Part shown: positions 10,505 to 64,000 of the stretch, piece after piece
Layout of the letters: each line of letters opens with the position of its first letter
Position numbering within the stretch: the stretch's first letter is position 1
IMG/VR virus record: IMGVR_UViG_3300049448_000779
DNA from: an uncultured virus (IMG/VR IMGVR_UViG_3300049448_000779)
Taxonomy: Duplodnaviria; Heunggongvirae; Uroviricota; Caudoviricetes
Reading direction: 5' to 3' (one strand)
Length of the DNA: 64,000 nt
Program-made: the position numbers and the translations under genes
The notes under the pieces: generated by a model
The model's database searches: none
Told to the model about the DNA's origin: nothing
The model's input: only the letters and a program-made list of their open reading frames with translations

Positions 10505-11731
10505 CTGCGCCCCCTTAACCCCGCCCCATCTGTCCGGGCTCTCGCACAGCTACATCCAAGATATCGGCGAACTGCCGCAGCGACTTTTCGAGCTGCCTGA
10601 AGACCTCCGCTTGCGGAACGCCATCCATGTGCGCCAGCGCGGTCTCAACTTTACCGGCATTGTTCACGACGGCCACGAATGTGACCTGCCCTCCTCGCTC
10701 CCTGAGCACTTGCTGAATGCGTTCGGCCAAACCTACTTGCGGCATCTTGCCCTCCTTGGCGCGGGAATCCGTCCCCCGCGATCCCTCTCTCAAGGGTTGT
10801 CTCAGATCTCGGATCAAGAGAGAAGAGAGAAGAGATGTGAGTGTGTAGCGTCGCGGGGGACGGTTTTGATCGCTCATTCAATTCCCATCAGCCCCCGGTA
10901 TCGTTGGGCTAGCTCTGGAGGCAAGGCTAGGATTCGCTTCCGGGCTTGCTGGATGCGTCGTGCGAGCTGTTTGGGCTCTTGAGTGTCCGGCTCTTGTACG
11001 ATCTTGTCGAGCGCTTCCATGGCTCGCTTGACCTTCTTCTCCTGTCGGCGATCTCTGTAGGGCCGCTTACGCTTTGCTTCACTCCGCACGCGAAGCTCTC
11101 GTTGGTAGCCCTCCCATTCGGGCGAGCCGTGCAGGTAGCGGGTTGACAGGAGATACCCGATTGAGCAGCCGCTCCACAGGATCACCATTCGCCCGTGGAT
11201 CAGGGATGGCGGGCGTGGCGCGCAGAAGTCCCGCGCCCAAGCGAGCCATCCCTCTACTGCGGCCTTCTTGTGCTCGAGCGCCGCGGGCGAACCCAGGATC
11301 TTGATCAGCTTCAGGACCCTTGGGAAGCCGCGGGCGCGATCGACCCGGACAACCAGGTCGGCGAACCTGTCCTTGCGCTCCTCGTATTGCGCGAGCGTTT
11401 CGTACGGTTGTTGGTAGTCTTCGGGCTGCCGTTGCCACCACGGGGGCCTTGGGCCGCCCGGCCACATGAGTCCATGGGCGCCTCCTACAATCAGCTCTGG
11501 AGGCTCTAGTTGGGCTTCGAGTTCAGCCCAAAACTCTTCATGCTCTTCTTCGGTTGCGGGCGGTAGGCGCTCATGCAAGTCCGCCCTCGGGCTGCTCAAC
11601 TCCGCTTCGATCTCGTCCTTCCAAGTGCCCATTCCCCGGGTGTACACCCGAAAATACCCCGGTTCCAGCGATCCGGACTTGCCTATTGGGCAGCGTTATT
11701 CCTACCCGACTGGCCCGGTGTAATTGCACCC

Positions 11732-12580
11732 ATGACTCACTCCCACGACAAGACTCTGCTTGTCTCGCTAGGCTTCTCCGACAAGGACAAGAAGAACCCA
11801 CGGCACGATCTTGCCTGTCAGTACTTGGCTCAAGCCCCTGTCTTCACCAAGCTCATGGCGCCCAACCTCGCCCCAGGCTGCGGGGTAGCGCTCGCCCCTC
11901 TCCATCACGAGTTCCACATCACCAAAGGCGAAAAGCAGTACAAGACTACAATCGGATTCGCTGACCTCTTTGTCAAGAATTGCATGCTCATCCGGCGTCT
12001 GGTCGCGCCCGAGCGCGTCCCATGCCCACCCATGCTCCGGGCCAATGAAGCAATCAAAGGCAGGAGCGAGGGTCAAGCGGACCTCAAGAAGCGCAAGGCC
12101 GCCCAGTGGGAAGCCTGGGAAGTCGCTCATGCTGCTGCGCCAGATAGCCCATTCTTCGTGTTCGCACGAATCGCCGTCTTGGTCGAAGTCAAGATAAAGC
12201 CGGTGTCGGCCGGTGATATCTTGAGGCAGATGCGACTCTACTCTGAGTACCTACCCGACTTAGGGCGCGTTTTTGCGCTCGACGACAACCCCAAGTTGGT
12301 TGCCGGCACCCCCCGGTACCGGTACTGTTATCGGCCGAGCAGCGCGACCTACGGCGACGATGGATGCCGGTGCGCGGCTCGCCATGCGGAAAAATACTTT
12401 GGAAGCGCGGCCGATTGGATGCGCTTCCAGAAGCTCGTTGTCACAGACTTCCCCCTTACGGCCGACGAGGTCGGCACACTGCGGTCCGCGGGGGTCTCTC
12501 ATACTCGGCTAGGGTCAGGATTCGAGGCCTACGTGGCGTCCGCTGCCGCCACTCAAGAGCATGATTCACCACAGATCTAG
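11732..12580 (+). CDS. PD-(D/E)XK restriction-endonuclease-fold protein
   Basis: IGFADLFV...VLVEVK...RQMRLY motif order; start set by the GGTGTAA-N8-ATG motif. Confidence 0.65.
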   Translation: MTHSHDKTLLVSLGFSDKDKKNPRHDLACQYLAQAPVFTKLMAPNLAPGCGVALAPLHHEFHITKGEKQYKTTIGFADLFVKNCMLIRRLVAPERVPCPPMLRANEAIKGRSEGQADLKKRKAAQWEAWEVAHAAAPDSPFFVFARIAVLVEVKIKPVSAGDILRQMRLYSEYLPDLGRVFALDDNPKLVAGTPRYRYCYRPSSATYGDDGCRCAARHAEKYFGSAADWMRFQKLVVTDFPLTADEVGTLRSAGVSHTRLGSGFEAYVASAAATQEHDSPQI

Positions 12581-13806
12581 CGACCGATGCCGTGCTTGGC
12601 CCTCTTACTTCAAGGCAGTGTTGGCAGCGCTCGCGCATGCACTTGAAGTCTAGCCCCGCTGCCACATAATATACCTTCATGAGACTCTTAGCTAAAGAAG
12701 CCAAGCATCCCGCAAGCCTTGGCTGGAAGCGCGTCAGTAGCGGCAAGTACCAACGAGGGACTCTAGTACTCGAGCATCGCGGTCCGGCTTGGTTTCTGCG
12801 CAATGGCGATGATCTGAAGGAGCACGCGTTCAAGACCCTACGGCTTGCACTGATCTTCGTCGAATTCTGTGAACCTGTCAGCGCGGGTACGTTCGCGCCG
12901 TCTCGTCAAGAGACCCGAGGGCCGTTCATGCTCGGTTGCGGAGAATGCGAGTGCTGCCAGGCTGGCCAGGACTGCCCCCGCATTGGTGAGCCTATCAGTA
13001 ATCTGGAAGACGACGGCTTAGACAACCGATTCTGAAGCCGCCCCTAGACGTTGTGGTCGGGGACACACTCAATAGCATCCCATGTTGTTAGATCTTCGAC
13101 CACTCGGGGTAGAGTCCGTGGTAGGCTTCGCGCATGGCACGCCTATTTTTGGTCATGTGTGACTCGGGCGAATTCGACAATGCTCAAGAGCACGTCGTGT
13201 GCGCCTACCTTGATCGCGAGCTAGCCGAGCTGCACGTTGAGCACTGCACCGCGGTAAGCGCCCGCTTCGCCCCGCCGCCCGAGCCTGGTGGGGTCGGTGG
13301 TGATTACGCAGCCTTCGTCGCTCGGCTCAGGAGGCACTGGGAGTTGCAGGAGGCCCCATATCTAGAGGCCATGCGTGATCTGGACCCCGAGGCATGCGTC
13401 GTAAGTTTGAAGCAGGGCGAGTACCGCGTTGAAGAGACACGGCTGTTCAACCAAGTTCCTACCCCTCCCCAGGAGCCCCATGCCTGACCTCACTCATGTT
13501 CATGCCGTTACCACCAACCAGAAAAATTCGCCGGCACCGTTTCGTTTCGAGCTGACCAAGCAGACGCTCAGCCTGCTGCTCGGATGGGATGCGAACGGCC
13601 GAGGCGTCGAAGAGATCGACACCCTTCTGCGCGAAGGGGTTGGCGTCAACGCCTTCACCAAGCAGGTGCCCCACGAGACGGGCACTGACGGGGTCGCCTA
13701 CCAGTTCCTCCCGTTCACCGGAAAGCTGGACGAAAACACGCAGCCCAAGGTTGAGCTTTTGGTCAACGTCTGCCGCAAGGATTGACTGCGCCGCTTGTGA
13801 TTCTCC

Positions 13807-14967
13807 TCACAGCGCGTCCATGAATACCTGCAACGGTGCTGGCAATGACAATCCCAGCACGGTCGCGAGGAAGCATTCTGCCCAGTTCTCCGTCCACTTG
13901 GTTTCGCCGTACAGGGAAGCTGCGAGCGGGTGGTATTTACCCTCGTTCAAGACGACCGTGAGATCGCCCCCGTACTGAGGGCTGCTGAGCGCGCGTTCGA
14001 GCGCCTCCGCGACGCTGTTGTCCCCGTCGTCTCGGAACCTCTTCACCAGAGGCACAACTTTGTTCCGCCATTCGTCGCGTGGAAACGCCGTGAACCACAG
14101 CTGCGCTCGCTCACTGAGGAAAGTCTCCGAGTCTGGGTAGTGCTCTTTCTGGTGCTCTCGCAGCAGCGCCATGTACTCGGTGGCCAAGCGTTGGCGCTCG
14201 GCGAGCGGGAACTGCGAGCGTTGCACGTCCCCGACCGTTGACAGCTCGATGAATTTCTCGCGCTGATCGCCGTTGCTGAACCGCGTGTGATGGCGGTGCC
14301 CGAACTCGTGAATGAGCGTTTTGATGCTGTCGCGATCCGGCGTCGCGTACAGGCTCAGGCTGATTGCGTCCGTCACCGGGGCGTAGACTCCCGCGACCTG
14401 CCCGCCTGACTCGTGCGGGGAATCCCCTCGAAGGCCGCGGCGAACGTAGACTTTGCCGTAGAGCACCTTCGGGAACTTAGGGCGGATCTTGGACGCGGCC
14501 GCATCGAGTGCGGCGATCGCTTCGTCGAGCCCGCCCTCGGCCCCCTTCGTCAGAATGATCGTGAACGGCCCGTGCTTGAACTCATCGTCTTGGCCTCGCG
14601 CCAAGTCTTCGAGCCACGGTAGCTCCTCCTTGATGCGATCAATCGACTTCCACATCACTTCGGTGTCGTCGCGATCGTGCCGCAGCGCGTACCGAAGGTT
14701 GCCTAGCAGCGTGACGATCGTTTCGAACCGACCTTGGTCCTTGTCGTCCAGCGCGTGTACCCACTCGGTGAGCACGTGGAGGCGATCGCTGCTCTTCGTG
14801 ACGTGGATCTTCAGCTGCTTGATGAGGAACGCGTCGAGCGCTGCGAGCGCGTCGTCATACGACTTCTGCCGGACCAGGGCTTCGATCCGTTGGATGTCCG
14901 GCGCCAGTACCCCCCTGGCCAGCAGATAGCGGGCGGCGACACGGAGCGCGAGGTGGTTCATCAACAA
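13807..14967 (-). CDS. Zincin-like metallopeptidase-domain phage protein with N-terminal RVAARYL motif
   Basis: TLIHEFGHR plus distal YGETKWTENWAECF. Confidence 0.7.
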   Translation of the reverse strand: MLMNHLALRVAARYLLARGVLAPDIQRIEALVRQKSYDDALAALDAFLIKQLKIHVTKSSDRLHVLTEWVHALDDKDQGRFETIVTLLGNLRYALRHDRDDTEVMWKSIDRIKEELPWLEDLARGQDDEFKHGPFTIILTKGAEGGLDEAIAALDAAASKIRPKFPKVLYGKVYVRRGLRGDSPHESGGQVAGVYAPVTDAISLSLYATPDRDSIKTLIHEFGHRHHTRFSNGDQREKFIELSTVGDVQRSQFPLAERQRLATEYMALLREHQKEHYPDSETFLSERAQLWFTAFPRDEWRNKVVPLVKRFRDDGDNSVAEALERALSSPQYGGDLTVVLNEGKYHPLAASLYGETKWTENWAECFLATVLGLSLPAPLQVFMDAL

Positions 14968-17602: not shown

Positions 17603-19068
17603 GGCGCTTTGGCCGCGAAGCTCCAGGATCTGGGGTTGTGCTTCTTCAGGCGAGCCGCTGCGACGTTCATCACGTGCCCCCACAGGTTGCCCGCAGAGTC
17701 CATTGGTTGGACTGCGTAGCGAGCACGATCATCGCCCGGGAGCGGTGCAACTTCTTTGAGCACCTTCACCGGGTACGGGGAGCCGTCTCCGATGATGTCG
17801 ATGTCGTAGAGCTGTCCGATTTGCTTTGCCATACGCCCAATACGTCCGGGCGACCCTAGAGTTCACGCCCAAGCATCGAAACCTCGAAAGCGGGTCGCTC
17901 GAGCCTACCAACGAAAGTGCTCCGTGGCGGGGTCCCCGTCGAGCCGGTATCGGCCCGTGATTGGATGACGGTGCCAGCCGACCAGCGGGTCGCCCTCGCC
18001 TGTCCACACCTCGGCGGCCTCGATTGCGCGAGCGCGGGACTCGTAACAATACGCGTTCAGAATGCAGCCCAACGGGCCGGGCTCGCCGTGAGACAACCGC
18101 GCTTTGCCGAACGTCATGGGATAAACGCAGATCTGACTGCCGTCTGGCAGCATGCGGTGGTAAAGCGCGCCCTCTGCGTTAGTTGGTTCTGTGGGTTGCG
18201 GACGCATGCATCACTTCCTCCACTGCCTCTTCGTCACGCAGTAGCTCGTAGTATTGGGTCGCGCGTGGCAATGCAGTTTCGACCAGTCGATGGGCTGCGT
18301 CAGTTGGAGCCGGCGTGCACAGCACGACCACATTCAGCGAAAGTGCGAGGGCCGGCGCAATCGCATCTCGCGGACACCCCGACCGTTCCAGCTCGCTGCA
18401 GGTCTTGAGCAAGATCCTCGCAGCCCTGTCGGCATCATCGCCGCACGCCAGACACCTGCAATACACAACACGTTCGCCAGGTTGGTGCCTCATTTAAGCC
18501 CCCTTTGGTTTGCTGGGTCGTACCTTGGCCGCTTGTTAACGCAATCCCAGCCTCAGCGTCAATATCTAGCGTCAGGAGACTAGTTGAACGGCTAGTTGCA
18601 CGCTTTGACAATCGTCATAAAGCCGTGGCATGCCCTTGGGGATGAAGACAGCGCCAGATCAAGGGTGCCGACCGTGAGCCGGCGCAATCGAGGGCCGCGC
18701 AACCATGCGTACGGTCCGAAGCAAGCTCCACAAAGTGGAGGGTTCGTAACCGAGGTGGAGCTGACGGCAAACCTAATGCTCATGGAACCGCCACTACCGA
18801 CCGATCCGCCACTCACCGAAACGCAACGAACCCAATGGGGGCGCGCTGTAGATGCGGTGTCCCTTGCGGTAATGAGCCAGCCCAGCGCGACAGATGCGCT
18901 TGCCGTGCTGGCCAGAGCGATCAGAGGCGTTGCGGCTCAGGCGGATATGTCGCTCGGGGACGCGCTCGCGTTCGTCAAGACCTACACGGAAGAGGATGCC
19001 CTTGCGTTTCATAAGGCATGGGCCGAAGTTGCCGGCGCCCTACCCGAGCCCCCGACAAAGGCCTGAGC

Positions 19069-19140
19069 GTGGATCACTATTTCGATCGAGACGGCAAGCC
19101 GATAACGCTACAGCGTTCGGGCGTTCCAATCGACCCCTAG
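19069..19140 (+). pseudogene. Truncated remnant of the HYFDR-family gene (paralogs at 16410-16757 and 30657-31043)
   Basis: Translates VDHYFDRDGKPITLQRSGVPIDP*, matching only the paralog N-terminus. Confidence 0.55.
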
Positions 19141-19606
19141 CGCCACCAGCTTGCGGCGCATGCGTGACCACCGATGGCGGGCAGCACGCCTCTCACGGTT
19201 CTGCCTTATGCGGTCGCGGCGAGTACGGCGAGCGGTCTCCATACGCCCTATACGCGGCAGAACCGTACAAACTTCACGCTAAAAATGACCCAGCAGCCTA
19301 GTGCAACTCCCAAACCAAGCGCCAAGTACGGCGCAAGTCCGAGGGCTTTTACGTGAAGCTGAGCCGGTGTAGAACGAGCCCATGCCAATGGACATCGAGA
19401 CGGCCCTACTCATTGTCGACGACGAACTCCCTGACGGGGCATATTTCGCGATGCTCGGCGAATTGACCGGTTTGCCACATGACGCAGTGGTGGAGGCCTT
19501 GGTGGAGCATGCCGATCGAATAGAGGAACTTGCGTCTCCTCCGCCGCGAGGGAAGAAGGGCAAGCGATGACCCCTTTGCTCAATCCATGGGCTGTGCCTG
19601 GAACGA

Positions 19607-31541: not shown

Positions 31542-32783
31542 ATGGTCCCTTTGGGCAGTTTCATTTCATCCATGCCGGTCTCTACACTTGCAACGCCGGT
31601 GGGAGATCCACTTGTAACCCAGGTCTGTGTGAGCCGTGCGACTCGAGTTCTGGTTAGATACCTTACAGCTGAGGCCCGCGTATCCCCAAAGGCAGCCCTT
31701 GATATCTTCCGGCGCTACGCCCCGAAGATCGAGGCAAACCGTGACGGGGATCCGACTATGGCCGCACAACTCTACCTTGAGATGGCCGGTCAGATTCACC
31801 CGCTATCCGAGGCTCTTGAAGGGGTCGTGATCCAGCGCAAGGACGAGCAGCGCAAGCTCGACCATCTACGCGTACTGCTGCGGCGCCTTGGGCGCGCCAC
31901 GGAGCCCAGCACTCTCAAATCCTGGGATAGTGAAGACGAGCTGGCTTCCTGGATCAAGATCCGTCTCGAGGGACTGGAAGAGATCTTGAGAAGCTTGGTT
32001 CGCATCGGGGTGCGTTTGAGCGAGTACACGGAAAGCATCCAGCGAACGTACAGCTATGGCCCGTACACCGTGGTGAACCATCATGGGTTCCGTGCGGAAG
32101 AGGTCGAGCAGGCCCTCAAGAACCTGGACGACGCGACAACCCTCGTGCAGGCATCTGGGTTCAGGTCGGCCATCTATGGAGAGATCACTCTCGAGTCTCC
32201 GAAGGGGGTCAGCTATGCTGGTAAGTACGAGGCAACCCCGGACACCATTCAGCTCAACGTCGCGGCTCGGAATCGCTTCGACGCAGTCTATACTCTCGTG
32301 CACGAGATCGGGCATAGAGTCTGGTTCAAGCTGTTGACCGACGCACAACGCGACGCATACGAGGATCAATACTTCGGCACGGCGAACCGAGCGATCTCTG
32401 TGCCGGAACGCGAGACCATGTGGCATGCATTCCAGCGCGCCGAGTTCAACCCCCGCCGCGTCAAGGCCCTGCTTCCGACGGAGCTGCGCGACGTGTGGGG
32501 CGCGTATTGGAAGGAGCGCAGCAAGGTCACGCGCTGGCCCAAGCCGGCGGAACTAGCCAATCCAGGCCCCAACGTAATGACTCTTGAAACCGTGCACCGG
32601 AATTTCGTGATGCCCAAGACGCGCTACGTGGTGTTGGATGAGTCCGTGCGGTCAGTCACCGACTACGGTAAGACCAACGTCAGGGAGGACTTCGCGGAGG
32701 TGTTCGCGCACTACTGCTCTGGCAAGCCTCTGACCGATGATGCTGAGCTGCGATTCAGCGCGGCGACGGGCCGGCACGTGTAG
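31542..32783 (+). CDS. Zincin-like metallopeptidase-domain protein, paralog of 13807-14967; true start likely GTG ~31629
   Basis: TLVHEIGHR plus YGKTNVREDFAEVF; N-terminal RVLVRYL. Confidence 0.7.
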   Translation: MVPLGSFISSMPVSTLATPVGDPLVTQVCVSRATRVLVRYLTAEARVSPKAALDIFRRYAPKIEANRDGDPTMAAQLYLEMAGQIHPLSEALEGVVIQRKDEQRKLDHLRVLLRRLGRATEPSTLKSWDSEDELASWIKIRLEGLEEILRSLVRIGVRLSEYTESIQRTYSYGPYTVVNHHGFRAEEVEQALKNLDDATTLVQASGFRSAIYGEITLESPKGVSYAGKYEATPDTIQLNVAARNRFDAVYTLVHEIGHRVWFKLLTDAQRDAYEDQYFGTANRAISVPERETMWHAFQRAEFNPRRVKALLPTELRDVWGAYWKERSKVTRWPKPAELANPGPNVMTLETVHRNFVMPKTRYVVLDESVRSVTDYGKTNVREDFAEVFAHYCSGKPLTDDAELRFSAATGRHV

Positions 32784-41163: not shown

Positions 41164-43353
41164 ATGCTAGTCCAGAAGATCTACCTCCGGCCCTGCAACC
41201 AAGCCTCTATGGATCTCGCTCTCGGTGAGCTGATTCTGTATGGCGAATCACGGAACGCGTTGACGCGCATCCACAATAAATGGATGCGAATAGGTAACGC
41301 GCCGCTTGTCCCCGAGTACCAGACGATCGCTCAGGACTACCGAAATCACCCTCCCAAGACCGGCCGCCGCCCTACGCTACGATGCTTGGTGCAGTGCACG
41401 GGGCGACGGATCAAGGTGCACGACGATGATCCCAGCCGTGAAGAGAAGCTGCAAAAGGCAGCGGGGAAGGCGTGCAGAATGCAGCTTACCCAATCAGGGG
41501 GCGTAGAAACCAAGCTGGACAAGCTCCGGGAGAGCTGGGGGCTCGTAGAAGTCCTGGAGCATGATCGCCAGCGCTACCGAGTTCGGTGCTCGCAGCCCAA
41601 GTCGGCGCGGTCCCTGATTCCATCGCTCGAAAAGTGGATCAAAGCCAGTGCTCCGCTCGATGCCAAGCTGGACAAGTTCCGTAAGCGCTGGGGGCTCGTA
41701 GAAGTCCTGGAGCAGGATCATCAGAGCTACCGAGTTCGGTGCTCGCAGCCCAGATCGGAGCGAGCCCGGACTAAATCGCTCAAAAAGTGGGTCAAAGTCG
41801 GCGAGTCGCTCGACGCCAAGCTGGACAAGCTCCGTGAACACTGGGGGCTCGTAGAAGTCCTGGAGCAGGATCAGCAGCTCTACCGAGTTCGGTGCTCGCA
41901 GCCCAAGTCGGCGCGACCTCAATCGCTTGAAAAGTGGATCAAAGCCAGCGAGTCGCTCGACGCCAAGCTGGACAAGCTGCGCGAGAAGTGGGTCACGATC
42001 GAGATCCAGGACCGAGATCAAGGGCGTAGTGACCACGCGGAACTGCGTGCCGCCGATATGCGTGCCGTCTACGGTCGCCACGTCGAGGCCGGCGGCTATT
42101 ACGGGACCTTCCATCTTGCAAACGAGGCTGTGGCCTCCGCCGCCAAGGCCACCGAGGCTCGTGACTCTTTTGGGCGCTTGATCGTGCGTGAGCTGCGGGA
42201 GTCCGAGACCTCCGACGACGGGCGCGCAGCGATCGACCTCTCGCGCTTCCGCTGGGACGAGCAAGACCCGTGGATGGTCGAAATCCATGGCACCCGCTGG
42301 AGCTGCCATCGAGATCAGCTGATGGGCCGCCCACGCACTCCGGCCCAGGAGGCGGTGGGCCGCGAACGAGACAAGCTTGACCCGCGTCGGCCGCCCACGG
42401 ACGCCCGGGTCGTACGCGCGCACCTTCAGCGCGATCGGATGAGCCCTCCGAGCCGGCTCAACATCCGATGGAATTGGTACCTCGTCCTTACCCTTGATTG
42501 TGATTCCCCGGAGCGCGAGGTCTCCGAGGAACGCACAGAAGCTGGCCTCGACCTCTGCTGGCGTCAAACCGATGATGGCCTCTCGTACCGCGTAGCGTAC
42601 CTCGCAGACTCACGCGGGCGGGAACGCGAGATCACCGTGCCACGCACAGCGGTATCAGCGCTGCTGCACTACGAGCACATCAAATCCCTGGCTGATCTGG
42701 AGGCAGACCGTCTGCGCAAGATCCTGAAGCTCAGTGACCGCACCGGTCACCGTACGCTCGTGCAGCGTGCTCTAGAGCGTGATGGCCAACCCAGCCCCGA
42801 TTACCGGGATCGCGACTCCAGCACGTGGAATGCCTCCGAGATCGCGCATCATATGATCCACCTCGACGAGTACGCGCACCACGGCCGCAGCAATGCTCTC
42901 GCCCAGAGAGACGGGCACTACCTCCACGAGATACACACAATCCTGCGCGAGCAGAAGGTGATCTACTGCGAGGACATGGAGGGCGACAAAGCGCTGGTCA
43001 CCAAAGAAGGGGGCGGCAAGGCTCGCGATCAGCGGCAACAAACGGCGCCGTTCACCTTCCTGCGCTTGCTACAGCGCGAGGCGCCCAAGTTCGGCGCTGT
43101 AATCGAGCTGCGTGAGCCCGCTTACACATCGCGCATTTGCGACGTTTGCGGGCATGACATGGGCGCCTCGAGCCAGCTATGGCGGCGGTGTCAGAAGTGC
43201 GGGACACGGCACGATGTGGATGCGCTGGCGGCTCGCAATATCCGGTGTGGTGTGAGCGGCCCGGTGACACCTGAACTCCAGGGTGTGGGTCCTCACAATG
43301 ACAATGTTCACGAGGACAGGAAGCCGCTCCGAAAGCGACGAACGAAGCATTAG
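41164..43353 (+). CDS. tnpB: TnpB/Cas12-superfamily RuvC protein (Cas12m/V-U1-like motif I) with internal tandem repeats
   Basis: RuvC-I AGLDLCWR, RuvC-II IYCEDM, PAYTSRICDVC...CQKC zinc finger, RuvC-III HDVDALAARNI. Confidence 0.8.
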   Translation: MLVQKIYLRPCNQASMDLALGELILYGESRNALTRIHNKWMRIGNAPLVPEYQTIAQDYRNHPPKTGRRPTLRCLVQCTGRRIKVHDDDPSREEKLQKAAGKACRMQLTQSGGVETKLDKLRESWGLVEVLEHDRQRYRVRCSQPKSARSLIPSLEKWIKASAPLDAKLDKFRKRWGLVEVLEQDHQSYRVRCSQPRSERARTKSLKKWVKVGESLDAKLDKLREHWGLVEVLEQDQQLYRVRCSQPKSARPQSLEKWIKASESLDAKLDKLREKWVTIEIQDRDQGRSDHAELRAADMRAVYGRHVEAGGYYGTFHLANEAVASAAKATEARDSFGRLIVRELRESETSDDGRAAIDLSRFRWDEQDPWMVEIHGTRWSCHRDQLMGRPRTPAQEAVGRERDKLDPRRPPTDARVVRAHLQRDRMSPPSRLNIRWNWYLVLTLDCDSPEREVSEERTEAGLDLCWRQTDDGLSYRVAYLADSRGREREITVPRTAVSALLHYEHIKSLADLEADRLRKILKLSDRTGHRTLVQRALERDGQPSPDYRDRDSSTWNASEIAHHMIHLDEYAHHGRSNALAQRDGHYLHEIHTILREQKVIYCEDMEGDKALVTKEGGGKARDQRQQTAPFTFLRLLQREAPKFGAVIELREPAYTSRICDVCGHDMGASSQLWRRCQKCGTRHDVDALAARNIRCGVSGPVTPELQGVGPHNDNVHEDRKPLRKRRTKH
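41511..41990 (+). repeat. In-frame tandem repeat (153, 153, 147 bp plus a partial fourth unit)
   Basis: Unit starts CAAGCTGGACAAG at 41511, 41664, 41817 and 41964; encodes KLDKLR..WGLVEVLEQD....RVRCSQP. Confidence 0.95.
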
Positions 43354-55411: not shown

Positions 55412-56053
55412 ATGCTCTGGAGAATCGATGCAAGCGGACCATTTGCGCTCTGGACGCCGCCATGTTTTCGTGCGGAACGCTACAGTCAACTCGTTGGCTC
55501 CCATGATGCTATGGCGGGCCTTCTGCGCGGGGTGTTAGGTCACCGCGGAATGAACTGGACAATCCATGCAGTCCACATCCTCAGTGAGCCAAGATACTTG
55601 GGTCTCACCCAAAACGAACTGAAGTTTGACGGCGTCGGACCATTCAGTCGACATGAACGACAACATACGCAACGGCGCAATACCTATCTGCTCGATGTCC
55701 GGTACATCATCGAGGCAAGCATCATCCTCTCGAGCCGCGCCGATCCAAGCGATACCATCGAGAAGTTCAATTCGATGTTTGGCGAGCGCCTGCAGAAAGG
55801 GAAGCAGCGACGACAGACCTACTTTGGGATTCGCGAGTGCATGGCATTAGTTGACCCGTGGGGCGGGCCAGTGCCACCCGCTATCAACGTAACGCAAGAG
55901 CTGGGCATCTGCTACTACGGCACGGATTTCGACGATCCGGAGACCCCGCAGTACTTTGCGCCTCTCTCCGTTATGAGCGGGGTCGTCCACTATCCGAGCT
56001 GGGATCATGTTCGCAGCCTTGGGATTGCCCGCCGTACGCGAAGGAGCGCGTAG
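55412..56053 (+). CDS. cas5: Type I-C Cas5 (Cas5c/Cas5d), divergent
   Basis: GPFALWTPP..RAERYS, NE, QR...LLDVRYIIEA and YFGIREC motifs. Confidence 0.9.
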   Translation: MLWRIDASGPFALWTPPCFRAERYSQLVGSHDAMAGLLRGVLGHRGMNWTIHAVHILSEPRYLGLTQNELKFDGVGPFSRHERQHTQRRNTYLLDVRYIIEASIILSSRADPSDTIEKFNSMFGERLQKGKQRRQTYFGIRECMALVDPWGGPVPPAINVTQELGICYYGTDFDDPETPQYFAPLSVMSGVVHYPSWDHVRSLGIARRTRRSA

Positions 56054-56055
56054 CC

Positions 56056-57774
56056 ATGGACCTACTTGCTTCGCTCACGCGCTATGGCGAACGAGTCGGA
56101 TTGAAGCCGCTCCTCCGTGACAAGAAGTTCGTCGAGGTCTGGTGTCTTGACCTTGACACAGGGGCGTTAGCACACGTCAAAAGTACGACGCTGAAACTAC
56201 CCCAACCTGTGGCGCGCGGCTCTAATGCCGCCACTACCCCGAACCGCACCTTCGACTACGCGAAGTACGTCACGAATCGAGAGTCAGCGTTCTGGGGTCT
56301 TCTGCTGGCCATACTGAATGAGTCCAGAACGCTGACCGCCAAAGTCAACGCTCTTCTGGCCAACACGAACTGGCACGTGAAACTCGTCACCGACGAAATC
56401 ATCTTCACTGACGGGATTGGCCATGCTCATACCCTGAGTGCGACAGCAGACGTGGTCCTAATGTGTAAGGGCCAAGCGTTAGCCGAGCACCAAGTTGTAC
56501 AAAAATGGTTATCCGTACAGACCGATGATGGCATCGGGACGGCTGCGTGCCTCATTACCGGCGAGCAGCGTCCCATCTCGCGCCTGCATCACGGGATCCG
56601 AGCCGGCACGGACAAACTCGTCTCTCACAATGAGTCATCATCTTGCTATTTTGGCCTGAAGCCGAGCCAAAACTTTCAGGTCTCGGTGAGAGCAGCGGAG
56701 CTGTACGCTTCCGGTCTTTCCTACTTGATGGACACTCGCCGCGAACCGGCGAATTCGATGATGATCGTTAAGGACGTGTCCTTGGTGGTCTGGCCAGATC
56801 GCGAAGGGATCACTCATCCCATCATTTCCGCCGCGATCACAGTGCTGCGCACGTTCCCGGCCGGCGCTTCTAAACCCAAAGAGCAACAGGCGGCCTTGGC
56901 CAAACTAGAAATTGCCTGGCGCGAAATCGATGCTACTGCTGACACTGACAGCACAGACCTGTGCATGGCGATTCTTGGGTTTCGGATGAATCGCTACATA
57001 CCAATTGCGTATGGGCACACGACTGCCGCACAGTTGAAAACAGCTCTGCAGTTGTTTCGCGCGGAGTTTGAAGGGTCCACGTTCCGCCAAGTTGCTGGCG
57101 TCTGGATCAGCGAAGCCGGCAAGGTCCTAGATGATGTGCTCTATACGGTTCTTTGGGCCGTTCTGACTGGCAAGCCCTACCCACTCAAAGTGACACACCT
57201 TAATCGGCACAATGTCCGCGACTACACAAAATTCCGTTGGTTCAATGCCTACAATCACCGAAAAGGTGCACCCCTGATGTCGTCATACAAGAAAATCTCT
57301 AAGGAGTTCGAGCAGGCACCGACACGTGACCAGTATTACAACCCTGAGTTGTTGGCGCAGCTGAACAAGTTCTATTTGTTCGGGCAACTGGTCGACGTCT
57401 ACTGTCGGCTCAAACAGCTCGCGCAACATAAGAACTCGGTCAAGCCGGCAGTTCAACTGAAGATCGCCCTGGGCTCCCCGCAGCGTATCTACTCGCGGAT
57501 GCTCGAAGACGGAGTGTTTCAGGTCGAGAAAATCCGCCAGAAGGGTCGCAATCCCGAATGGGAACGCGAATTCAACCGCATCGTGGCAGATTACTACAGA
57601 GGTGGCATTGGCACCCTTCCAGCCAGGCTGTCAACCGAGGAGCGCGAACTCGTTACCCTCGGCTATTGGAGCCAGAAGCTGTACGCCCAGCATCTCTTGA
57701 CTCACTGGAGCATACTCCGCCTCAGAAAAGAAGACCGCAGCAGTGATGGGGCTGCCCCCGCTCCAGCTGAATGA
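56056..57774 (+). CDS. cas8c: Type I-C large subunit Cas8c (Csd1), divergent; probable internal Cas11c start at 57277
   Basis: CLITGEQRPISRLH...LVSHN...NFQVSVRAAELY..GLSYL; C-terminal YLFGQL...LGYW; lies between cas5 and cas7. Confidence 0.85.
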   Translation: MDLLASLTRYGERVGLKPLLRDKKFVEVWCLDLDTGALAHVKSTTLKLPQPVARGSNAATTPNRTFDYAKYVTNRESAFWGLLLAILNESRTLTAKVNALLANTNWHVKLVTDEIIFTDGIGHAHTLSATADVVLMCKGQALAEHQVVQKWLSVQTDDGIGTAACLITGEQRPISRLHHGIRAGTDKLVSHNESSSCYFGLKPSQNFQVSVRAAELYASGLSYLMDTRREPANSMMIVKDVSLVVWPDREGITHPIISAAITVLRTFPAGASKPKEQQAALAKLEIAWREIDATADTDSTDLCMAILGFRMNRYIPIAYGHTTAAQLKTALQLFRAEFEGSTFRQVAGVWISEAGKVLDDVLYTVLWAVLTGKPYPLKVTHLNRHNVRDYTKFRWFNAYNHRKGAPLMSSYKKISKEFEQAPTRDQYYNPELLAQLNKFYLFGQLVDVYCRLKQLAQHKNSVKPAVQLKIALGSPQRIYSRMLEDGVFQVEKIRQKGRNPEWEREFNRIVADYYRGGIGTLPARLSTEERELVTLGYWSQKLYAQHLLTHWSILRLRKEDRSSDGAAPAPAE

Positions 57775-57805
57775 TCACGAGACCCATACAGAAACAAAAG
57801 GCACT

Positions 57806-58000
57806 ATGACAAACAAAACAGACTCTGACGACGACGTTAGGTGGTTCGGTCTTGTGTCCACGAAGTCAGTGGACACCTCGATCTCCGGACCTGTGCAACT
57901 GGGCGTTGACCATGAAACCTTGCCAAGCCGTATCCGTATTACGCCTATCAAGAGCATTCAGGTTCTCGGGCGCATAGTCCGGCTTGAGCCTAACGAGTAA
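57806..58000 (+). CDS. 64-aa protein homologous to the Cas7c core motif (mini-Cas7)
   Basis: DVRWFGLVSTKSVDTSISGPVQLG vs cas7 DVRWFGAVLTKPVNWPITGPIQMG; AAAAGG upstream of the ATG. Confidence 0.65.
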   Translation: MTNKTDSDDDVRWFGLVSTKSVDTSISGPVQLGVDHETLPSRIRITPIKSIQVLGRIVRLEPNE

Positions 58001-58041
58001 ACGCGAGACCAACCCACTCTACCCTAAGGACTGAAAGCACC

Positions 58042-59004
58042 ATGACAACAGCAACAGTTACGACTCTGCCAGTTAAATCCGAGATCTATGACAGGCGTAC
58101 GGACATGGTCCTAATCACCAGCGCGATCTGGAGCGTGCTTCAAGGCAACCCTGACGAAGATAACGCGCGCCGCCAAGACCCAGACACTTTGCAGGGTATT
58201 ATGACCCCCCAGTGCCTCAAGTACAAATTGCGCCAGTGGTTGGAGCAGCATGGCTACGCACTGTTCATTAAGCCTGGCGGTGCGGCTTTGGAGCAGTTGA
58301 TCTATAATGTGCTCACGGATGTTGGAATCGATCCCAGTAAAATCTCTGCCGAGGCCGACGACGAAGACGCAGATGAAGACAACGAGACTGAAGGCAAGCC
58401 CAAAAACAAGGGCAAGAAGAGCAAGAACCGCGTACTGCGACAAGATGAGATCCGCGACACTGTGCGTCGTCTTTGCGCTGATTACGCGGATGTTCGTTGG
58501 TTCGGCGCTGTCCTGACGAAGCCAGTGAATTGGCCCATCACCGGCCCCATCCAGATGGGATTTTCGATGAGCGTTGATCCGGTGTACAGCCAAGAGCTGG
58601 GCATCACTCGCTCCGCCGTGACCAGAATCGACGACCTGAAATTGAAGAATCGAGACATGGGTCGTATGTCCATGATCCCTTTCGAGGTTTGTACTACGCC
58701 GATCTCGATTGATCCGTTTCGGGCTCGCGCCACTGGGTTCACGTATGCCGACCACGAAATGCTTATCAGTGGACTCCGGGAAATGTACGACATGACCCGG
58801 TCTACGCTCCGCTCGGGTGTGTGCGCCGAGAAGCTGGTAATCTTCCATCACGATAGTCCCTACGGCAACGCTCGGGCGCTCAAGCTGTTCCGCCGCGTCC
58901 AGATTAAGTCGAGTGTGCCCAACTCGCGTTCCTTCAAAGACTGGACGGTTGACGTCGATACCACTGGGCTCAATGGCGTATCCGTCGAGGTTCTCGATCT
59001 CTAG
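58042..59004 (+). CDS. cas7: Type I-C backbone Cas7c (Csd2)
   Basis: QGNPDEDNARRQDPDT...CLKYKLR, DVRWFGAV, GPIQ, ITR, MGR, TGFT and HDSPYGNA. Confidence 0.92.
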   Translation: MTTATVTTLPVKSEIYDRRTDMVLITSAIWSVLQGNPDEDNARRQDPDTLQGIMTPQCLKYKLRQWLEQHGYALFIKPGGAALEQLIYNVLTDVGIDPSKISAEADDEDADEDNETEGKPKNKGKKSKNRVLRQDEIRDTVRRLCADYADVRWFGAVLTKPVNWPITGPIQMGFSMSVDPVYSQELGITRSAVTRIDDLKLKNRDMGRMSMIPFEVCTTPISIDPFRARATGFTYADHEMLISGLREMYDMTRSTLRSGVCAEKLVIFHHDSPYGNARALKLFRRVQIKSSVPNSRSFKDWTVDVDTTGLNGVSVEVLDL

Positions 59005-59013
59005 TTAGCGGAG

Positions 59014-59051
59014 GAGCGGGGCTGCGGGCTCAAGTGCTCTCAGCCCCGCTC
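59014..59051 (+). promoter_or_regulatory. 11-bp hairpin between cas7 and the helicase gene
   Basis: GAGCGGGGCTG...CAGCCCCGCTC perfect inverted repeat ending 10 nt before the helicase ATG. Confidence 0.65.
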
Positions 59052-59061
59052 ATCACTCTAT

Positions 59062-61470
59062 ATGCAATTGCGCCACTACCAGACCGATGACTTCCTGAAA
59101 CTCGTAGAGGCTCTATCGGTTCTCAAGAGCTTGGGTGTGGATTACGCTACAGGGGGTGGCAAAACCGTTTTGAGCCTGGCGGCCGCGGCCTGGGTGATAC
59201 AGAAAGGCGTATTTGATCGTGCGCTGGTTTTGACGCTTGGTACCGCAATCGTGAACCAGTTCCTTGCGTTGTCCAACGAGTGGATCCACCCCACGAACGA
59301 TGAGTTCGAGCCATTCTCTCTTGGCGAGATCAGGTCGGCATTGAATGGGTTGGAGTTGGAGCGTTGGCTCACGCCCTTGCTCACTGATGACCCGCGTCCG
59401 CGCATACTCGTCACTACGCACCAGATGTTCACAACGAATCTTTCCTCGGTCGAAAAGTCTCTACTACGTGACCGTCGGACGTTGATCGTTGTCGATGAGC
59501 CACAGTATGCCCCTTGGATCGAGGGTAAGGCGGCAGCATGCGAACCCGGCCAGGAGGATGAGGGTCGCCAGCAGCACATTCTCGGTCGGGCGATCACTCG
59601 TTTGCAACTTGCCGGCTCAGTGGTGGCTAAGTTTACCGGAACTCCGAGTCGAACTGATGGGCTACCGGTTTTCTCCAAAGACGACTACACAGAGGTGACA
59701 CGCTCTCTTCACCAGCTGATGCTCTACGGGATGTGCCCTCAGTATCTGCACAGCAGAATCGTGCACGTCGATAGCAGTTCAGTTGATGACGGCGACACCT
59801 GCTTGGCTCCGCTGGACCCTAACAAGGGTAGCGAGGCTGTTCGTTCTATGAGGAATGACTACGATTGGATTCCCGCTTGCACTAGAGTCAAACCCGGGTC
59901 CCGTGAAGACAATCAGGAAGTGGTTGCCAAGATTCTCGCGCGTGATCCGAGCGCCATCAACGCCTCCGGCGACAATGCTACAGAATATTTTGATGCGCTG
60001 GGTCGAGAGTCTGCATGTCTCAAAAACAGAACTGCGGTCTACAGCGACTACCAGACCAATTTAGTCGGGATGACGCGGCCGGTCACAGGGGTGGACTCGC
60101 CCTCGCGAGCCCTGGGAATCTTCTATGGAATCCCAAAATCCATGAACGTGTTCAGGCAGTTCATGGGGCGAATTCTCCGGCGCAAGGTGGGGGACGACGG
60201 AAAGCCACTCTATATTGGCTACCCTGAAGCGTGGCTGAACCGGGTCCAGCTGGTGTTCGTGATTGGCGGCTTACCCAGTGAAGCCCATCGTAGGGAAGAG
60301 CATCTCGGCATTCTCTTCAGAGCGCTAGCGCTGGCTGAGTCTCTCAATCAAGCGGGGATGCTTGGCCGCATGTTCGCGCGCTACTATGACGGTCTGACTC
60401 GGACTCCTGGCCGCGGTCTTCCACCAGGTAAGGAGAAGGAGATCCTCGACGTCGTCACAGGAGAGGCTCCAACACTCTTGCTAGAAGCGGAGCTGGACAT
60501 TTTAGGCACGGCATCAGAGCTGGATGACGTTGGGTATCAGACTCTAAAGCTTGATGGAAAATTCAGGTATATGGAAGGCTGGCTCCGAGCGCACACTCGA
60601 TTGATGGCCGAGGCAGAAGGCGTTCCGCAGTCTGGCATCCAGGCGATCATCGACGCGGCGGTACTGAAACACCTGCCTAGCATCAAAGCCCTGTTGACTG
60701 CACGTACGATGGCTCAGCCGCAGCATGAGACGCGGGTACAGGCAGTCTTAGAGCAAATCCCAGACCAGTCGCTGCAAGACCAGGTACAGGCACTGTTCGA
60801 GGAGTTCAAGGCTGACGTTTGTGCGTTAGACAACAGCGCCTATGTCCTGGACGCTCGGCTGATTGAATACCATCGGACCAAGGCCGCGCTGATCTTTAAG
60901 CGGGTGCAGCCTCTTGATTCGACCGACGCGATTCTGGAGCGCGTTCAGGCGCACCGCGATCGCCACGACGGGCAATACCCCGAACTAGATCAGCGCGATC
61001 CGATTGACTCTCGCATCACCTTCAAGACGCATGACCAGCATCTAAGGACCGGCCATTACGCCGAGTTCACGGGCGAGCTTGGTGAGTTGCTCTACATGAG
61101 ATGTGAGCGCACCTCTTGGTGGGACGATGCCCGGGAGGTTGAAGCCCTCTATCACAAGCTGTTGCGCAATGGGTCGCCGGAGGTGGCGGCTGTTATCAAG
61201 AGCGAAGGCAAAGACAAGCTGGGAAGAATGCGGGCCGCCTTTGGTGACCGCGTGGTGGTGCGGTACTATCCTCGCGCCCTGCTTGTTGCAACCGCGAGAG
61301 ATAGCACTGGCGACTTCATCTGCTCTGAGGACTTCCTCCGACAGCTGACACTTCCAGAAGCCCAGAGGTTAGGGGGCGCTCAACGGCTCGTCACCGTGCT
61401 CAAGGCGCATCAGTTGACGTTCGATACGAGAGGGATGACGGCGGTCCGCGAAAGGTTGGGCTTCCTGTGA
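59062..61470 (+). CDS. SF2 helicase (Res/RadD-like, no HD domain) occupying the cas3 position
   Basis: Q-motif LRHYQ at residues 3-7, Walker A ATGGGKT, DEPQ, TGTPSRTDG, motif VI QFMGRILR. Confidence 0.85.
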   Translation: MQLRHYQTDDFLKLVEALSVLKSLGVDYATGGGKTVLSLAAAAWVIQKGVFDRALVLTLGTAIVNQFLALSNEWIHPTNDEFEPFSLGEIRSALNGLELERWLTPLLTDDPRPRILVTTHQMFTTNLSSVEKSLLRDRRTLIVVDEPQYAPWIEGKAAACEPGQEDEGRQQHILGRAITRLQLAGSVVAKFTGTPSRTDGLPVFSKDDYTEVTRSLHQLMLYGMCPQYLHSRIVHVDSSSVDDGDTCLAPLDPNKGSEAVRSMRNDYDWIPACTRVKPGSREDNQEVVAKILARDPSAINASGDNATEYFDALGRESACLKNRTAVYSDYQTNLVGMTRPVTGVDSPSRALGIFYGIPKSMNVFRQFMGRILRRKVGDDGKPLYIGYPEAWLNRVQLVFVIGGLPSEAHRREEHLGILFRALALAESLNQAGMLGRMFARYYDGLTRTPGRGLPPGKEKEILDVVTGEAPTLLLEAELDILGTASELDDVGYQTLKLDGKFRYMEGWLRAHTRLMAEAEGVPQSGIQAIIDAAVLKHLPSIKALLTARTMAQPQHETRVQAVLEQIPDQSLQDQVQALFEEFKADVCALDNSAYVLDARLIEYHRTKAALIFKRVQPLDSTDAILERVQAHRDRHDGQYPELDQRDPIDSRITFKTHDQHLRTGHYAEFTGELGELLYMRCERTSWWDDAREVEALYHKLLRNGSPEVAAVIKSEGKDKLGRMRAAFGDRVVVRYYPRALLVATARDSTGDFICSEDFLRQLTLPEAQRLGGAQRLVTVLKAHQLTFDTRGMTAVRERLGFL

Positions 61471-62192
61471 GTACCTACGATAAGGATGCTTGGCGAAAGT
61501 TCAACGTTCACTTTCTCTCGAGTTGCCGGGGACTCTGGTCCGATGGAAAACTCAAGTTCAGCTACTACGAACTGGTCGGACTGTCAGGGTCCAAGATGTA
61601 TGATCTGCTCAAGGAGATGCTGTATACACCGAAACAGTTCATCGGGGTGGATCAAAGCCCTGAGGTGGTGCTGTACCATCGTATGAATCGGGCTCCCTGG
61701 ACAACGTGTCTGGTCAAGGACGGCTACCTTAAGGCGGAGCAGGTGGCGTCTCTTTCGGCGAGTCAGCGCGAGCCATTCGGGATTGCTCCGTATCCGATCG
61801 CGATCTACGGCTTCGACGACCACGCGAGTATTGGCCTGCAATCTTGGTGGGACACGGAAGCAAGCCAGCTTCGGCAGATCGTCGCCAAGACACTAGAACA
61901 GACTGGCGTGTGTTGCTTGATCTTGAACAACACTCTCGACCGAAACCCGGACCGGCACAAGGCGGTAGCGGAACACACGCGCCGACTCTGCTTAGCGTTC
62001 GAAGGTTGGGGCCTAAAAGAAGAGGCCCTACTCGGACCTAACCGCAGATTCTTGAACTGCATCGTCGAGAGACCGTCAGGGCATTTCGGTGGCTACGAAG
62101 TATACAAGAGCCTCGACCGCGCCCTGCGCATGGCGACGATTAGACTTGAGTTCACTAAGACCCGCGGCGTGCGGGTATGGAAAGGCGAGTGA
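61467..62192 (+). CDS. Putative class I SAM-methyltransferase-fold protein, coupled to the helicase
   Basis: GTGA overlap with the helicase stop; YYELVGLSG, FIGVDQSPEVV, VKDG, IAIYGFDD, CLILN and a terminal beta-hairpin, in Rossmann MTase order. Confidence 0.5.
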   Translation: MSTYDKDAWRKFNVHFLSSCRGLWSDGKLKFSYYELVGLSGSKMYDLLKEMLYTPKQFIGVDQSPEVVLYHRMNRAPWTTCLVKDGYLKAEQVASLSASQREPFGIAPYPIAIYGFDDHASIGLQSWWDTEASQLRQIVAKTLEQTGVCCLILNNTLDRNPDRHKAVAEHTRRLCLAFEGWGLKEEALLGPNRRFLNCIVERPSGHFGGYEVYKSLDRALRMATIRLEFTKTRGVRVWKGE

Positions 62193-62197
62193 GAGAT

Positions 62198-62416
62198 ATG
62201 GAACGATTGGACTCTGAGAAAGTGTATCAGTATATCGGCAAGTCGGTTCGCACCACCCAGGACATCGCGAAGCACTTCAAGGTGCGCGCTGGCCAGGCTG
62301 CGGCTGCTGTTGCGATTCTCCGCATCAAGGGGACGGTGGTGCCGGCAATTCCCAAGAAGGATTTTGAGGGGGTCAGCCGATGGTGCCGGACTTCGAGCGC
62401 TTCCGCGGCTCGCTAA
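62198..62416 (+). CDS. Small winged-HTH-like protein (72 aa)
   Basis: EKVYQYI...TTQDIAKHFKVRAGQAAAAVAILRIKGTV helix-HTH-wing pattern. Confidence 0.6.
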   Translation: MERLDSEKVYQYIGKSVRTTQDIAKHFKVRAGQAAAAVAILRIKGTVVPAIPKKDFEGVSRWCRTSSASAAR

Positions 62417-62581
62417 CCCCAGGGAGCGCTCGCGTTCGGGTGGTTCTTTGACAATTCCATATGTTATCTGCTCAGCCTCGCGTGCTCTCCCAAGTGAGGT
62501 GGGGGCATCAAGCACGCCTGGTGGCAGGCGCTCGCAGAAGACGCTGCGAGTTGCTTGGTTTGAGTGCCCGTAGCGACGAGG
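62417..62581 (+). promoter_or_regulatory. CRISPR leader with a boxA-like element (62443-62454) and multibranch structure
   Basis: GTTCTTTGACAA; nested inverted repeats across 62476-62581. Confidence 0.65.
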
Positions 62582-64000
62582 GTAGCAAGGGGCTTTGGAG
62601 CCCCGAGTGATTGAAATATATAGCCGCGGATTGTCCGGATCCGGACGTCGAGGTAGCAAGGGGCTTTGGAGCCCCGAGTGATTGAAATGTGACCAGCTCA
62701 GCCTGCCTGGTTAGTTCCTCTAAGTAGCAAGGGGCTTTGGAGCCCCGAGTGATTGAAATGAGGGCGACCGACTGCATGAAGACGAGCGTCTTGAAGTAGC
62801 AAGGGGCTTTGGAGCCCCGAGTGATTGAAATGTCCTGGAGCGACCCACTGATCGGCTCGTATTCGCGCTTGTAGCAAGGGGCTTTGGAGCCCCGAGTGAT
62901 TGAAATAGGGCGGCGGTGGAACGGGCCAGTTCGAGGAAGTGGGTAGCAAGGGGCTTTGGAGCCGCGAGTGATTGAAATGCCGCGACCCCGGAAGGCTGCG
63001 TCCCGCAGGTCGACGTGTAGCAAGGGGCTTTGGAGCCCCGAGTGATTGAAATCTACCAGAGCCTGCGCGAGCGGCTCGAGCAGATCATCGTAGCAAGGGG
63101 CTTTGGAGCCCCGAGTGATTGAAATTCCAGCTCCCCCTTCACTTCATCGAGCCCAGCGACCGCGTCGTAGCAAGGGGCTTTAAGAGCCCCGATTGGTTGA
63201 AATTTGACGTAGTGCGTCTCGGCGATCTCAACCGAGTGCCCGGTAGCAGGGGACTGTGAGGCCCCGATTGGTTGAAATATCGATGGCCAGATTCTTGACC
63301 GCTTCCTCCGACCGCGTAGCAGGGGGCTGTGAGGCCCCGATTGGTTGAAATAACTCAAACGGATCACGCCGGACCCGAACACCCCAAGTAGCAGGGGGCT
63401 GTGAGGCCCCGATTGGTTGAAATGCGAGCACCCGGGAGCCAGCCTTCTTCGCACCCAGGTAGCAGGGGGCTGTGAGGCCCCGATTGGTTGAAATGCCGCA
63501 GGCGTCCTTCTGAACGCCGTCGACAACGGGAGTAGCAGGGGGCTGTGAGGCCCCCGATTGGTTGAAATCTCCGCGTGCGCGGCGTAACGAGCAACAAGCG
63601 GTGCGGGTAGCAGGGGGCTGTGAGGCCCCCGATTGGTTGAAATGGGAGGCCGTCTGCGAACCACTTTTGAGCGCCCCGCAGTAGCAGGGGGCTGTGAGGC
63701 CCGATTGGTTGAAATAACCTCTTCGGCGAGCTGGCCCTCGATCTCGACCTAGTAGCAGGGGGCTGTGAGGCCCCCGATTGGTTGAAATTTGAATGGTCAC
63801 GGTCGCATAGAGCGACTCAAACACGGGTAGCAGGGGGCTGTGAGGCCCCGATTGGTTGAAATAAGCGGACATCGAGCGAGTTGGTCTCGCAGTCGAGGTA
63901 GCAGGGGGCTGTGAGGCCCCGATTGGTTGAAATCCCGTGAAGGGGAGGACACGTTGTCCAGATTGGTTCGTAGCAGGGGGCTGTGAGGCCCCGATTGGTT
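62582..64000 (+). CRISPR. CRISPR array: 20 repeats (last truncated by window end), 19 spacers of 35-41 nt, two repeat types
   Basis: Repeats 1-8 GTAGCAAGGGGCTTTGGAGCCCCGAGTGATTGAAAT; repeat 9 hybrid; repeats 10-20 GTAGCAGGGGGCTGTGAGGCCCCGATTGGTTGAAAT; the TTGAAAT 3' end gives + orientation. Confidence 0.99.

Follow-up and report, generated by a model that had tools for sequence, protein, structure and literature searches.

Near one end of a 64,000-nucleotide stretch of DNA from an uncultured virus of the Caudoviricetes (IMG/VR record IMGVR_UViG_3300049448_000779), referred to at its full length as the window, lies a co-directional block of genes comprising, in order, cas5c, cas8c, a cas7 remnant, cas7c, a helicase gene, a 241-amino-acid (aa) gene and a 79-aa gene, followed by a CRISPR array. 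The helicase (59062..61470, + strand, as are all features of the block given below; 802 aa), encoded downstream of cas7c, is the main subject here, as the apparent motor of a type I-C complex without Cas3. Cas3, Cas4, Cas1 and Cas2 from canonical loci gave no convincing tblastn match within the window, the sole exception being weak matches of the Cas3 motor to the first domain of the helicase (best E 0.003), and the HD region of Cas3 gave none there at E<0.4. The element is likely to be a huge phage, because the protein encoded by the 241-aa gene is also recorded on a contig of 453,480 bp and relatives of the helicase lie on contigs of 335-512 kb, two of which are complete phage genomes (411,618 and 512,571 bp). 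Those two genomes contain no match to Cas1 and none over the cut-off to the HD domain of Cas3; the 411-kb relative gave one weak HD match, which was considered as a Cas3 nuclease and rejected, since it reads, presumably, as an HD-GYP-type protein. Contigs from four of four public DNA runs, one of which may be the source sample, align to positions 58000-62500 without a differing letter, indel or joint; one of these runs spans 30 of the 30 bins of this region. The public runs containing the locus come from soil and rhizosphere, with no RNA run among them.

Residues 1-445 of the helicase (59062..60396) form a superfamily 2 motor core, recognized by its motifs, Pfam, the structural model and the alignment, and carrying motifs Q, I, II, III, V and VI; these include the Q-motif LRHYQ (3-7), Walker A ATGGGKT (29-35), DEPQ (145-148), TGTPSRTDG (192-200) and QFMGRILR (366-373). 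An original prediction, made by a model from the letters of the DNA, had placed the Q-motif at residue 3 with no room for an HD domain; since the motif occupies residues 3-7 there is indeed no space for one at the N-terminus, and no HD model matches. Its description of the motifs as similar to those of Res and RadD was equally well founded. The Pfam ResIII match scores 44.5 bits against a cut-off of 22.5, the Cas3 models of NCBIfam and PADLOC give no match at E<=1, and a profile search of solved structures placed HsdR (72.6 bits) and type ISP, XPB and RadD (55-57 bits) above Cas3 (39.8 bits), a single-sequence search having found nothing useful there. The alignment used throughout holds 41 members, the query and 40 relatives of about 730-810 aa picked from the search lists by length and rank; all 41 match ResIII, none matches a nuclease family, HD models included, and K34, D145, E146, R197, Q366, R370 and R373 are identical in every one. 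This invariance of the ATPase residues argues for a motor predicted to be active. The DEPQ of motif II, singled out earlier as unusual, was rejected as a diagnostic feature: residue 148 is H in 32 of the 41 members, DEPQ is a private variant, and the closest members have DEAQ, as does a canonical I-C Cas3. The AlphaFold model built on the 41-row alignment has a mean predicted local distance difference test score (pLDDT) of 84, an earlier one from 4 sequences (pLDDT 44) having been unusable. Its top structural matches are motors of the Snf2 family, RadD and Hef (Z 15-16, root-mean-square deviation about 4 Å, 310-370 aligned residues), in a fold search that covered residues 1-595 and barely probed those past about 600. 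The Foldseek and VIA matches are generic superfamily 2 motors, and the lack of Cas3 among the matches listed does not exclude it.

A word-indexed search for relatives of the helicase returned only 3 besides the helicase itself, a profile search 284 proteins at E<=0.001 and 25 at E<=1e-30. With tblastn, the helicase or a relative found no match in annotated phage and plasmid collections, and sub-family scans of viral contigs gave no relative for two of four alignments and only a distant one for a third. A motif-based DNA scan yielded 61 viral and 112 genome loci (with flanks for 80 of the 112), from which 9 duplicate or near-duplicate loci and all those under 2 kb were dropped for counts of context. 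A score of 100 bits or more against the motor profile is reached by 33 loci. Cas7 lies nearby in 7 of them, the window included, and in none of the other 26; of these CRISPR-free loci, 14 extend at least 4 kb on either side with no Cas7 match. The order cas7c-helicase is kept in 6 of the 7 Cas7-linked loci (the window and those we number L001, L002, L004, L006 and L042), with helicase identity falling to about 20%, and the six Cas7 proteins of this downstream type form one starred clade separate from 7 canonical Cas7c (99/99). The arrangement in L094 (region 4738-12685, start approximate) is different: a Planctomycetota-branch helicase lies upstream of cas5c-cas8c-cas7c, in the usual place of cas3, the contig stopping after cas7. 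Because the L094 Cas7 falls among the canonical ones and its helicase among the CRISPR-free members from Planctomycetota, this locus suggests a second, separate association with Cascade.

Scored against a profile of the family, CRISPR-free relatives reach 182-285 bits, HsdR 83, RadD 60 and six Cas3 proteins 38-54, with E. coli DinG lowest of the reference helicases at 30.5 bits. In three trees of the motor core, which sampled 6, 5 and 3 Cas3 and left DinG out, the Cascade-linked and CRISPR-free members make up one starred clade with Cas3 outside it (99; 99; 100/98). A constraint that grouped the Cascade-linked members with Cas3 and without the CRISPR-free ones was rejected (p-value of the approximately unbiased test, p-AU, 0.00012). 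One that made the family and Cas3 sister groups was not (p-AU 0.45), nor was one that joined the query's subclade to two I-C Cas3 (p-AU 0.064, 23.8 log-likelihood units worse). With two of the three constraints not rejected the tree is inconclusive by itself, and the case against Cas3 rests on the profile scores and on a C-terminal repeat and a partner gene that are common to the CRISPR-free relatives and not to Cas3. On present sequence evidence, then, the helicase is a member of a separate ResIII-like family found in huge phages and Planctomycetota. The claim that it is not Cas3 therefore stands, with the constraint at 0.064 as a formal reservation, and the superfamily 2 phylogeny that had been proposed as a check placed it within the Cas3 helicases in none of the three trees.

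HsdR and RadD are distant relatives only, and the helicase is itself no restriction subunit. The proposal that a restriction-type translocase had been recruited to Cascade is thus upheld as regards a ResIII/HsdR/RadD-like motor and a linkage that recurs in other huge phages, and fails as regards restriction proper. Recruitment from outside to Cascade is a plausible direction, not a settled one, because CRISPR-free members nest among the Cascade-linked ones in the tree. With the outgroups used, they adjoin the Cascade-linked L006 protein, and forcing the members with a single C-terminal repeat into one clade gave p-AU 0.04-0.06; these results imply either repeated joining of the module to Cascade or the separation of some copies from it.

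As the motor core extends to about residue 430-445, the C-terminal part (446-802) measures about 360 aa rather than the roughly 400 first supposed; it is almost wholly helical in the AlphaFold model, as had been foreseen. It contains the helices predicted by the complex model to bind the 241-aa partner (residues 479-514, 60496..60603), one copy of a 74-aa repeat (residues 617-680, 60910..61101), identified by HHalign and repeat counts, and a helical tail with no family match (residues 681-802, 61102..61470), described from the model and a profile scan. In a profile-profile comparison residues 617-680 match the repeat at 95.9% in HHalign (E 5e-9); the query scores 6.3 bits against the repeat profile, compared with 3.1 for the best of 410 shuffles, and 8 of the 41 members exceed 8 bits at the same place. 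The repeat occurs in tandem, in up to 9 copies, in CRISPR-free relatives and singly in Cascade-linked members, and from its setting we infer that it binds DNA. The segment had been likened to helicase-associated (HA) DNA-binding repeats, and while it is a genuine repeat copy, the HA label was rejected at the sequence level: neither the query segment nor 4 repeat arrays of relatives match Pfam HA (PF03457) at E<=10. The repeats of one relative match HNH_repeat PF18780. The earlier remark that no nuclease motif could be seen holds as well, in that residues 446-802 show, across the 41 members, no conserved acidic or histidine cluster and no conserved nuclease-type residues. Only three polar columns (638, 644 and 735) are conserved at the threshold chosen, two of which the query lacks, and the HD dipeptides at 635 and 657 are not conserved.

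The unit beside Cascade had been taken to be the helicase; the helicase does belong to it, but as part of a two-gene module with the 241-aa partner, followed by a small gene resembling a winged helix-turn-helix (wHTH) protein. The partner gene (61467..62192), noted for its motifs, synteny and complex model and methyltransferase-like in motif pattern as a lead only, starts with GTG and overlaps the helicase stop by 4 nt. It stands directly behind the helicase in all five cas7c-helicase loci that have downstream sequence; of 19 CRISPR-free loci with at least 750 nt downstream, 11 contain it and 7 have it immediately after the helicase. L094, with helicase and Cascade, has no partner within 5.2 kb downstream. 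At E<=0.01 the partner family comprises 219 of the 8000 candidates that were scored, and a Pfam domain was found in none of the 120 members listed. A model of the complex, made with helicase residues 1-700, gave a score of 0.66, compared with 0.00 for the best of 3 controls. Of 157 solved complexes 116 attained the mark used for such scores, as did 2 of 215 mismatched pairs, counts that are approximate for our own alignments. The runs share at least 76% of contacts, with a partner pLDDT of at least 83, and the model supports predicted binding of the partner through helices 479-514. The 79-aa gene (62177..62416), winged-helix-like by eye, has neither a Pfam nor a PHROG name; homologs follow the partner in L001, L002 and L042, and none was found in L006. 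In the CRISPR-free locus L095 (6948-12318) the helicase-partner pair has as its neighbors a gene for a C5 DNA methyltransferase (Pfam 136.8 bits) and one that is Vsr-like by eye, a defence-island setting.

Among the Cascade proteins, Cas5c, Cas8c and Cas7c pass their Pfam cut-offs and fall under the equivalog cut-offs of NCBIfam. The cas5c gene (55412..56053, 213 aa; Pfam Cas_Cas5d 42.5 bits, PADLOC Cas5c 99 bits) has an N-terminal region that has diverged from canonical Cas5c, as judged by alignment with five of them. For cas8c (56056..57774; Pfam Cas_Csd1 92.6 bits) the ATG at 56056 was chosen by its match to the L001 homolog and gives 572 aa. A purine-rich site and an in-frame ATG point to a probable internal Cas11c frame of 165 aa (57277..57774), and in L006 the equivalent part is a separate 159-aa open reading frame (ORF). 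Between cas8c and cas7c (58042..59004, 320 aa; Pfam Cas_Cas7 171 bits) lies an 85-aa ORF (57743..58000) with a 31-aa cas7 remnant, a partial duplication that is 52% identical to Cas7 residues 150-180 (E 7e-9; Pfam Cas7 E 0.015). In the gap that separates cas7c from the start of the helicase gene, at 59014-59051, an 11-bp inverted repeat with a 16-nt loop and no T run behind it may modulate how the genes beyond it are expressed.

The array (62582..64000) runs off the end of the window and contains 19 whole repeats of 35-37 nt and 18 spacers of 35-41 nt. Its hairpin repeats are of two main types, ending ATTGAAAT, and the type changes after 8 copies by way of one hybrid repeat at 63167. In L001 and L042, too, the arrays contain a mixture of repeat variants with the hairpin kept, and in L042, the 512,571-bp phage, arrays flank the operon on both sides in opposite orientations.

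Elsewhere in the window, a dispersed 39-nt family starting TTGAAGTT (at 21261, 22062, 30275, 39877, 40135 and 50894) is possibly a phage promoter or operator. Related-looking proteins with an HEFGH/HEIGH motif of metallopeptidase type are encoded at 13807-14967 and 31542-32783, as well as in L001, the 411-kb phage, at 18132-19508, and tandem repeats of 12-14 nt (1423-1570) lie directly behind a tyrosine integrase gene.

Our preferred interpretation, which we regard as about evenly balanced between right and wrong, is that the block encodes a Cas3-less type I-C effector in which RNA-guided binding and a motor silence competing elements without cutting them, in the manner of type IV-A. Maturation of CRISPR RNAs (crRNAs) and R-loop formation by Cascade are established I-C biology; here Cas5c, Cas7c, Cas8c and Cas11c would mature crRNAs from the adjoining array, and an R-loop would be formed by them where a target matches. 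The helicase, carrying the partner on helices 479-514 as modeled, would be recruited to the bound Cascade and would move with ATP along the flanking DNA, probably double-stranded, in the manner of the HsdR, Res and Snf2 motors, the single 74-aa repeat providing a further point of contact with DNA. The outcome would be silencing or blocking of the target without cutting, as by type IV-A with CasDinG; the target is probably a rival phage or some other mobile element. The partner may be a cofactor-binding protein that regulates the motor or serves as its adaptor.

Several observations weigh against this interpretation. Operon linkage is the only basis for the presumed contact between helicase and Cascade, and genomic context has been established for only 4 of the 41 aligned members. 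A search of the phage collection with the spacers gave no match, and in the loci retrieved for this analysis they match in part only, over at most 23 nt. Since the helicase-partner pair also occurs without Cascade, it has a CRISPR-independent function. Strict conservation of motif-like residues in the partner (E35, G38, G41, D62 and D117, in 13 of 13) suggests that it may have a catalytic role, for which pure silencing has no need. A cas3 may lie elsewhere in the element's own genome, beyond the window that was searched, and the C-terminal part of the helicase may hide an unusual nuclease fold, the fold search having reached residue 595.

The chief alternative, which we nevertheless think unlikely, is RNA-guided modification of DNA (or protein), with Cascade marking the site, the motor carrying the partner and the partner methylating from S-adenosylmethionine (SAM), much as type III or ISP restriction-modification couples a motor to a methyltransferase. 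In the partner, E-L-x-G-x-x-G is followed by F-[IV]-G-x-D and, after that, by a strand with D at its end, which we take to be the pattern of a class I SAM-dependent methyltransferase. Its ESM Atlas neighbors with an assigned family are methyltransferases (0.83-0.86; lead-level only), and the predicted binding to the helicase and the methyltransferase gene next to the CRISPR-free copy in L095 point the same way. Against this, no partner homolog scanned has a methyltransferase match in Pfam, NCBIfam, PADLOC, PHROG or PDB, the partner contains no DPPY/NPPY or PC catalytic motif, and HHalign of its profile with 5 single methyltransferases, a weak test, gave no signal above 9 controls; L094 moreover combines helicase and Cascade with no partner in the downstream stretch searched. 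An extended version, in which I-C Cascade loads a motor carrying an active methyltransferase of an undescribed family, and the motor-enzyme pair of Planctomycetota and phages is by itself a stand-alone system, so far undescribed, that came to join Cascade on two or more occasions, is in our estimation similarly unlikely.

It is rather improbable that the helicase and partner are a self-standing module for defence or DNA handling that merely shares the operon, with Cascade a lone RNA-guided repressor or a user of the host's Cas3. The 14 CRISPR-free loci with no Cas7 in at least 4 kb on each side imply that the module works without Cascade, and defence genes are known to cluster; on the other hand, the fixed place between cas7c and the array in distant phages, the dedicated Cas7 clade and the shrinking of the repeat array to a single copy where the helicase is Cascade-linked speak for joint evolution, and L094, with its helicase at the normal place of cas3, for a second association. 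We give a little less credence still to destruction of the target by a nuclease hidden in the partner or in the tail of the helicase, or by one acting in trans. There is precedent, in that the Cas3-less variants I-E2, I-F4 and IV-A2 have gained nucleases, according to the accessible text of PMC12669027, and the tail lies outside the fold search, but the residue conservation in 446-802, the helical model and the two complete phage genomes with no Cas3-HD over the cut-off offer it no candidate. That the helicase is a highly diverged Cas3 helicase (Cas3') which has lost its HD domain is very improbable, the two constraints not rejected in its favor being outweighed by the separate clade in three trees, the rejected constraint, the profile scores and the repeat and partner gene shared with CRISPR-free relatives.

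Comparison with known systems begins with canonical type I-C (cas3-cas5c-cas8c-cas7c-cas4-cas1-cas2), with which the window shares the Cascade genes, repeats ending ATTGAAAN and a probable internal Cas11; it differs in having no cas3, cas4, cas1 or cas2, in the position of its helicase downstream of cas7c and in its separate Cas7 clade. The type I HsdR, type III Res, type ISP (LlaGI/LlaBIII) and RadD proteins provide the best profile matches among solved structures, with the same style of motifs. Unlike the restriction systems, the window has no HsdM, HsdS or Mod genes and, by sequence and residue conservation, no PD-(D/E)xK domain in the helicase, which carries instead the C-terminal repeat and a family-specific spacing, G-x-D-x-P-x8-G-x-P-x7-Q-x-x-G-R-x-x-R, found in 32 of the 41 members. 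The helicase-plus-partner module of Planctomycetota and phages (L095, L104, L135, L151, L015, L008 and L055) has the same helicase clade, repeat and downstream partner, but its helicases are mostly 900-1260 aa long with up to 9 repeats and are accompanied by no Cascade or array; no family model beyond ResIII matches them in Pfam or NCBIfam.

Type IV-A, for which interference independent of a nuclease has been described (PMC11519345), resembles the window system in combining an RNA-guided complex with a superfamily 2 helicase other than Cas3, in residing on mobile elements and in having no adaptation genes (PMC11656645 and PMC11519345, in the portions available). The window Cascade, in contrast, is derived from I-C rather than of Csf type, the motor is ResIII-like, DinG being its lowest-scoring reference, and a partner and a wHTH-like gene follow.

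Closest of all is a variant of type I-C, reported from two related huge phages, in which a helicase replaces Cas3 (Al-Shayeb et al. 2020, PMC7162821), a table in the same paper listing a third genome with cas5-cas8c-cas7. As far as the accessible parts of that paper go, it shares with the window Cas5c, Cas8c and Cas7, the absence of Cas1 and Cas2, and a helicase in the place of Cas3; the helicase is described there as an 'unidentified helicase', the phage genomes are huge (465,583 bp), consecutive gene numbers lead to cas5-cas8c-cas7 as in the window, and the legend of Extended Data Fig. 9 states that the catalytic residues of Cas5c differ in that variant. No partner gene, repeat or CRISPR-free relatives are named in those parts, and the likeness to the window is so far one of gene content and order. 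The 2020 phages carry CasPhi (PMC7162821), of which none was identified in this analysis. TnpB-like matches in two relative genomes lie in frames of 327-550 aa, and the window encodes at 41164-43353 a 729-aa protein with RuvC and zinc-ribbon features, the N-terminal part of which contains tandem repeats of 153 nt; its best solved match is a Cas12m (E 4e-6), not CasPhi, and no array lies beside it. In 2022, in Cell, Al-Shayeb and colleagues reportedly gave a helicase-linked phage system the name 'type I-X'. The accessible portions of PMC12669027, PMC11656645 and PMC10910872 include no I-C variant with a helicase, and the full-text literature within reach, which leaves out most subscription papers, contains no description of the partner gene and no functional test of the system.

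The window system is most probably a further case of the helicase-for-Cas3 kind reported in 2020, to which the present analysis adds a helicase-partner module that exists without CRISPR, an identification of the repeat and a predicted docking surface. Class 1 CRISPR systems known to act without cutting are mainly of type IV-A or linked to transposons; this would be a compact type I-C case that is open to testing, made up of an array with five or six genes and conserved among huge phages. The partner gene, its predicted contact surface and the CRISPR-free relatives turn the brief remark of 2020 into concrete tests, and should the partner prove to be an active methyltransferase, the system would be a natural RNA-guided epigenetic writer.

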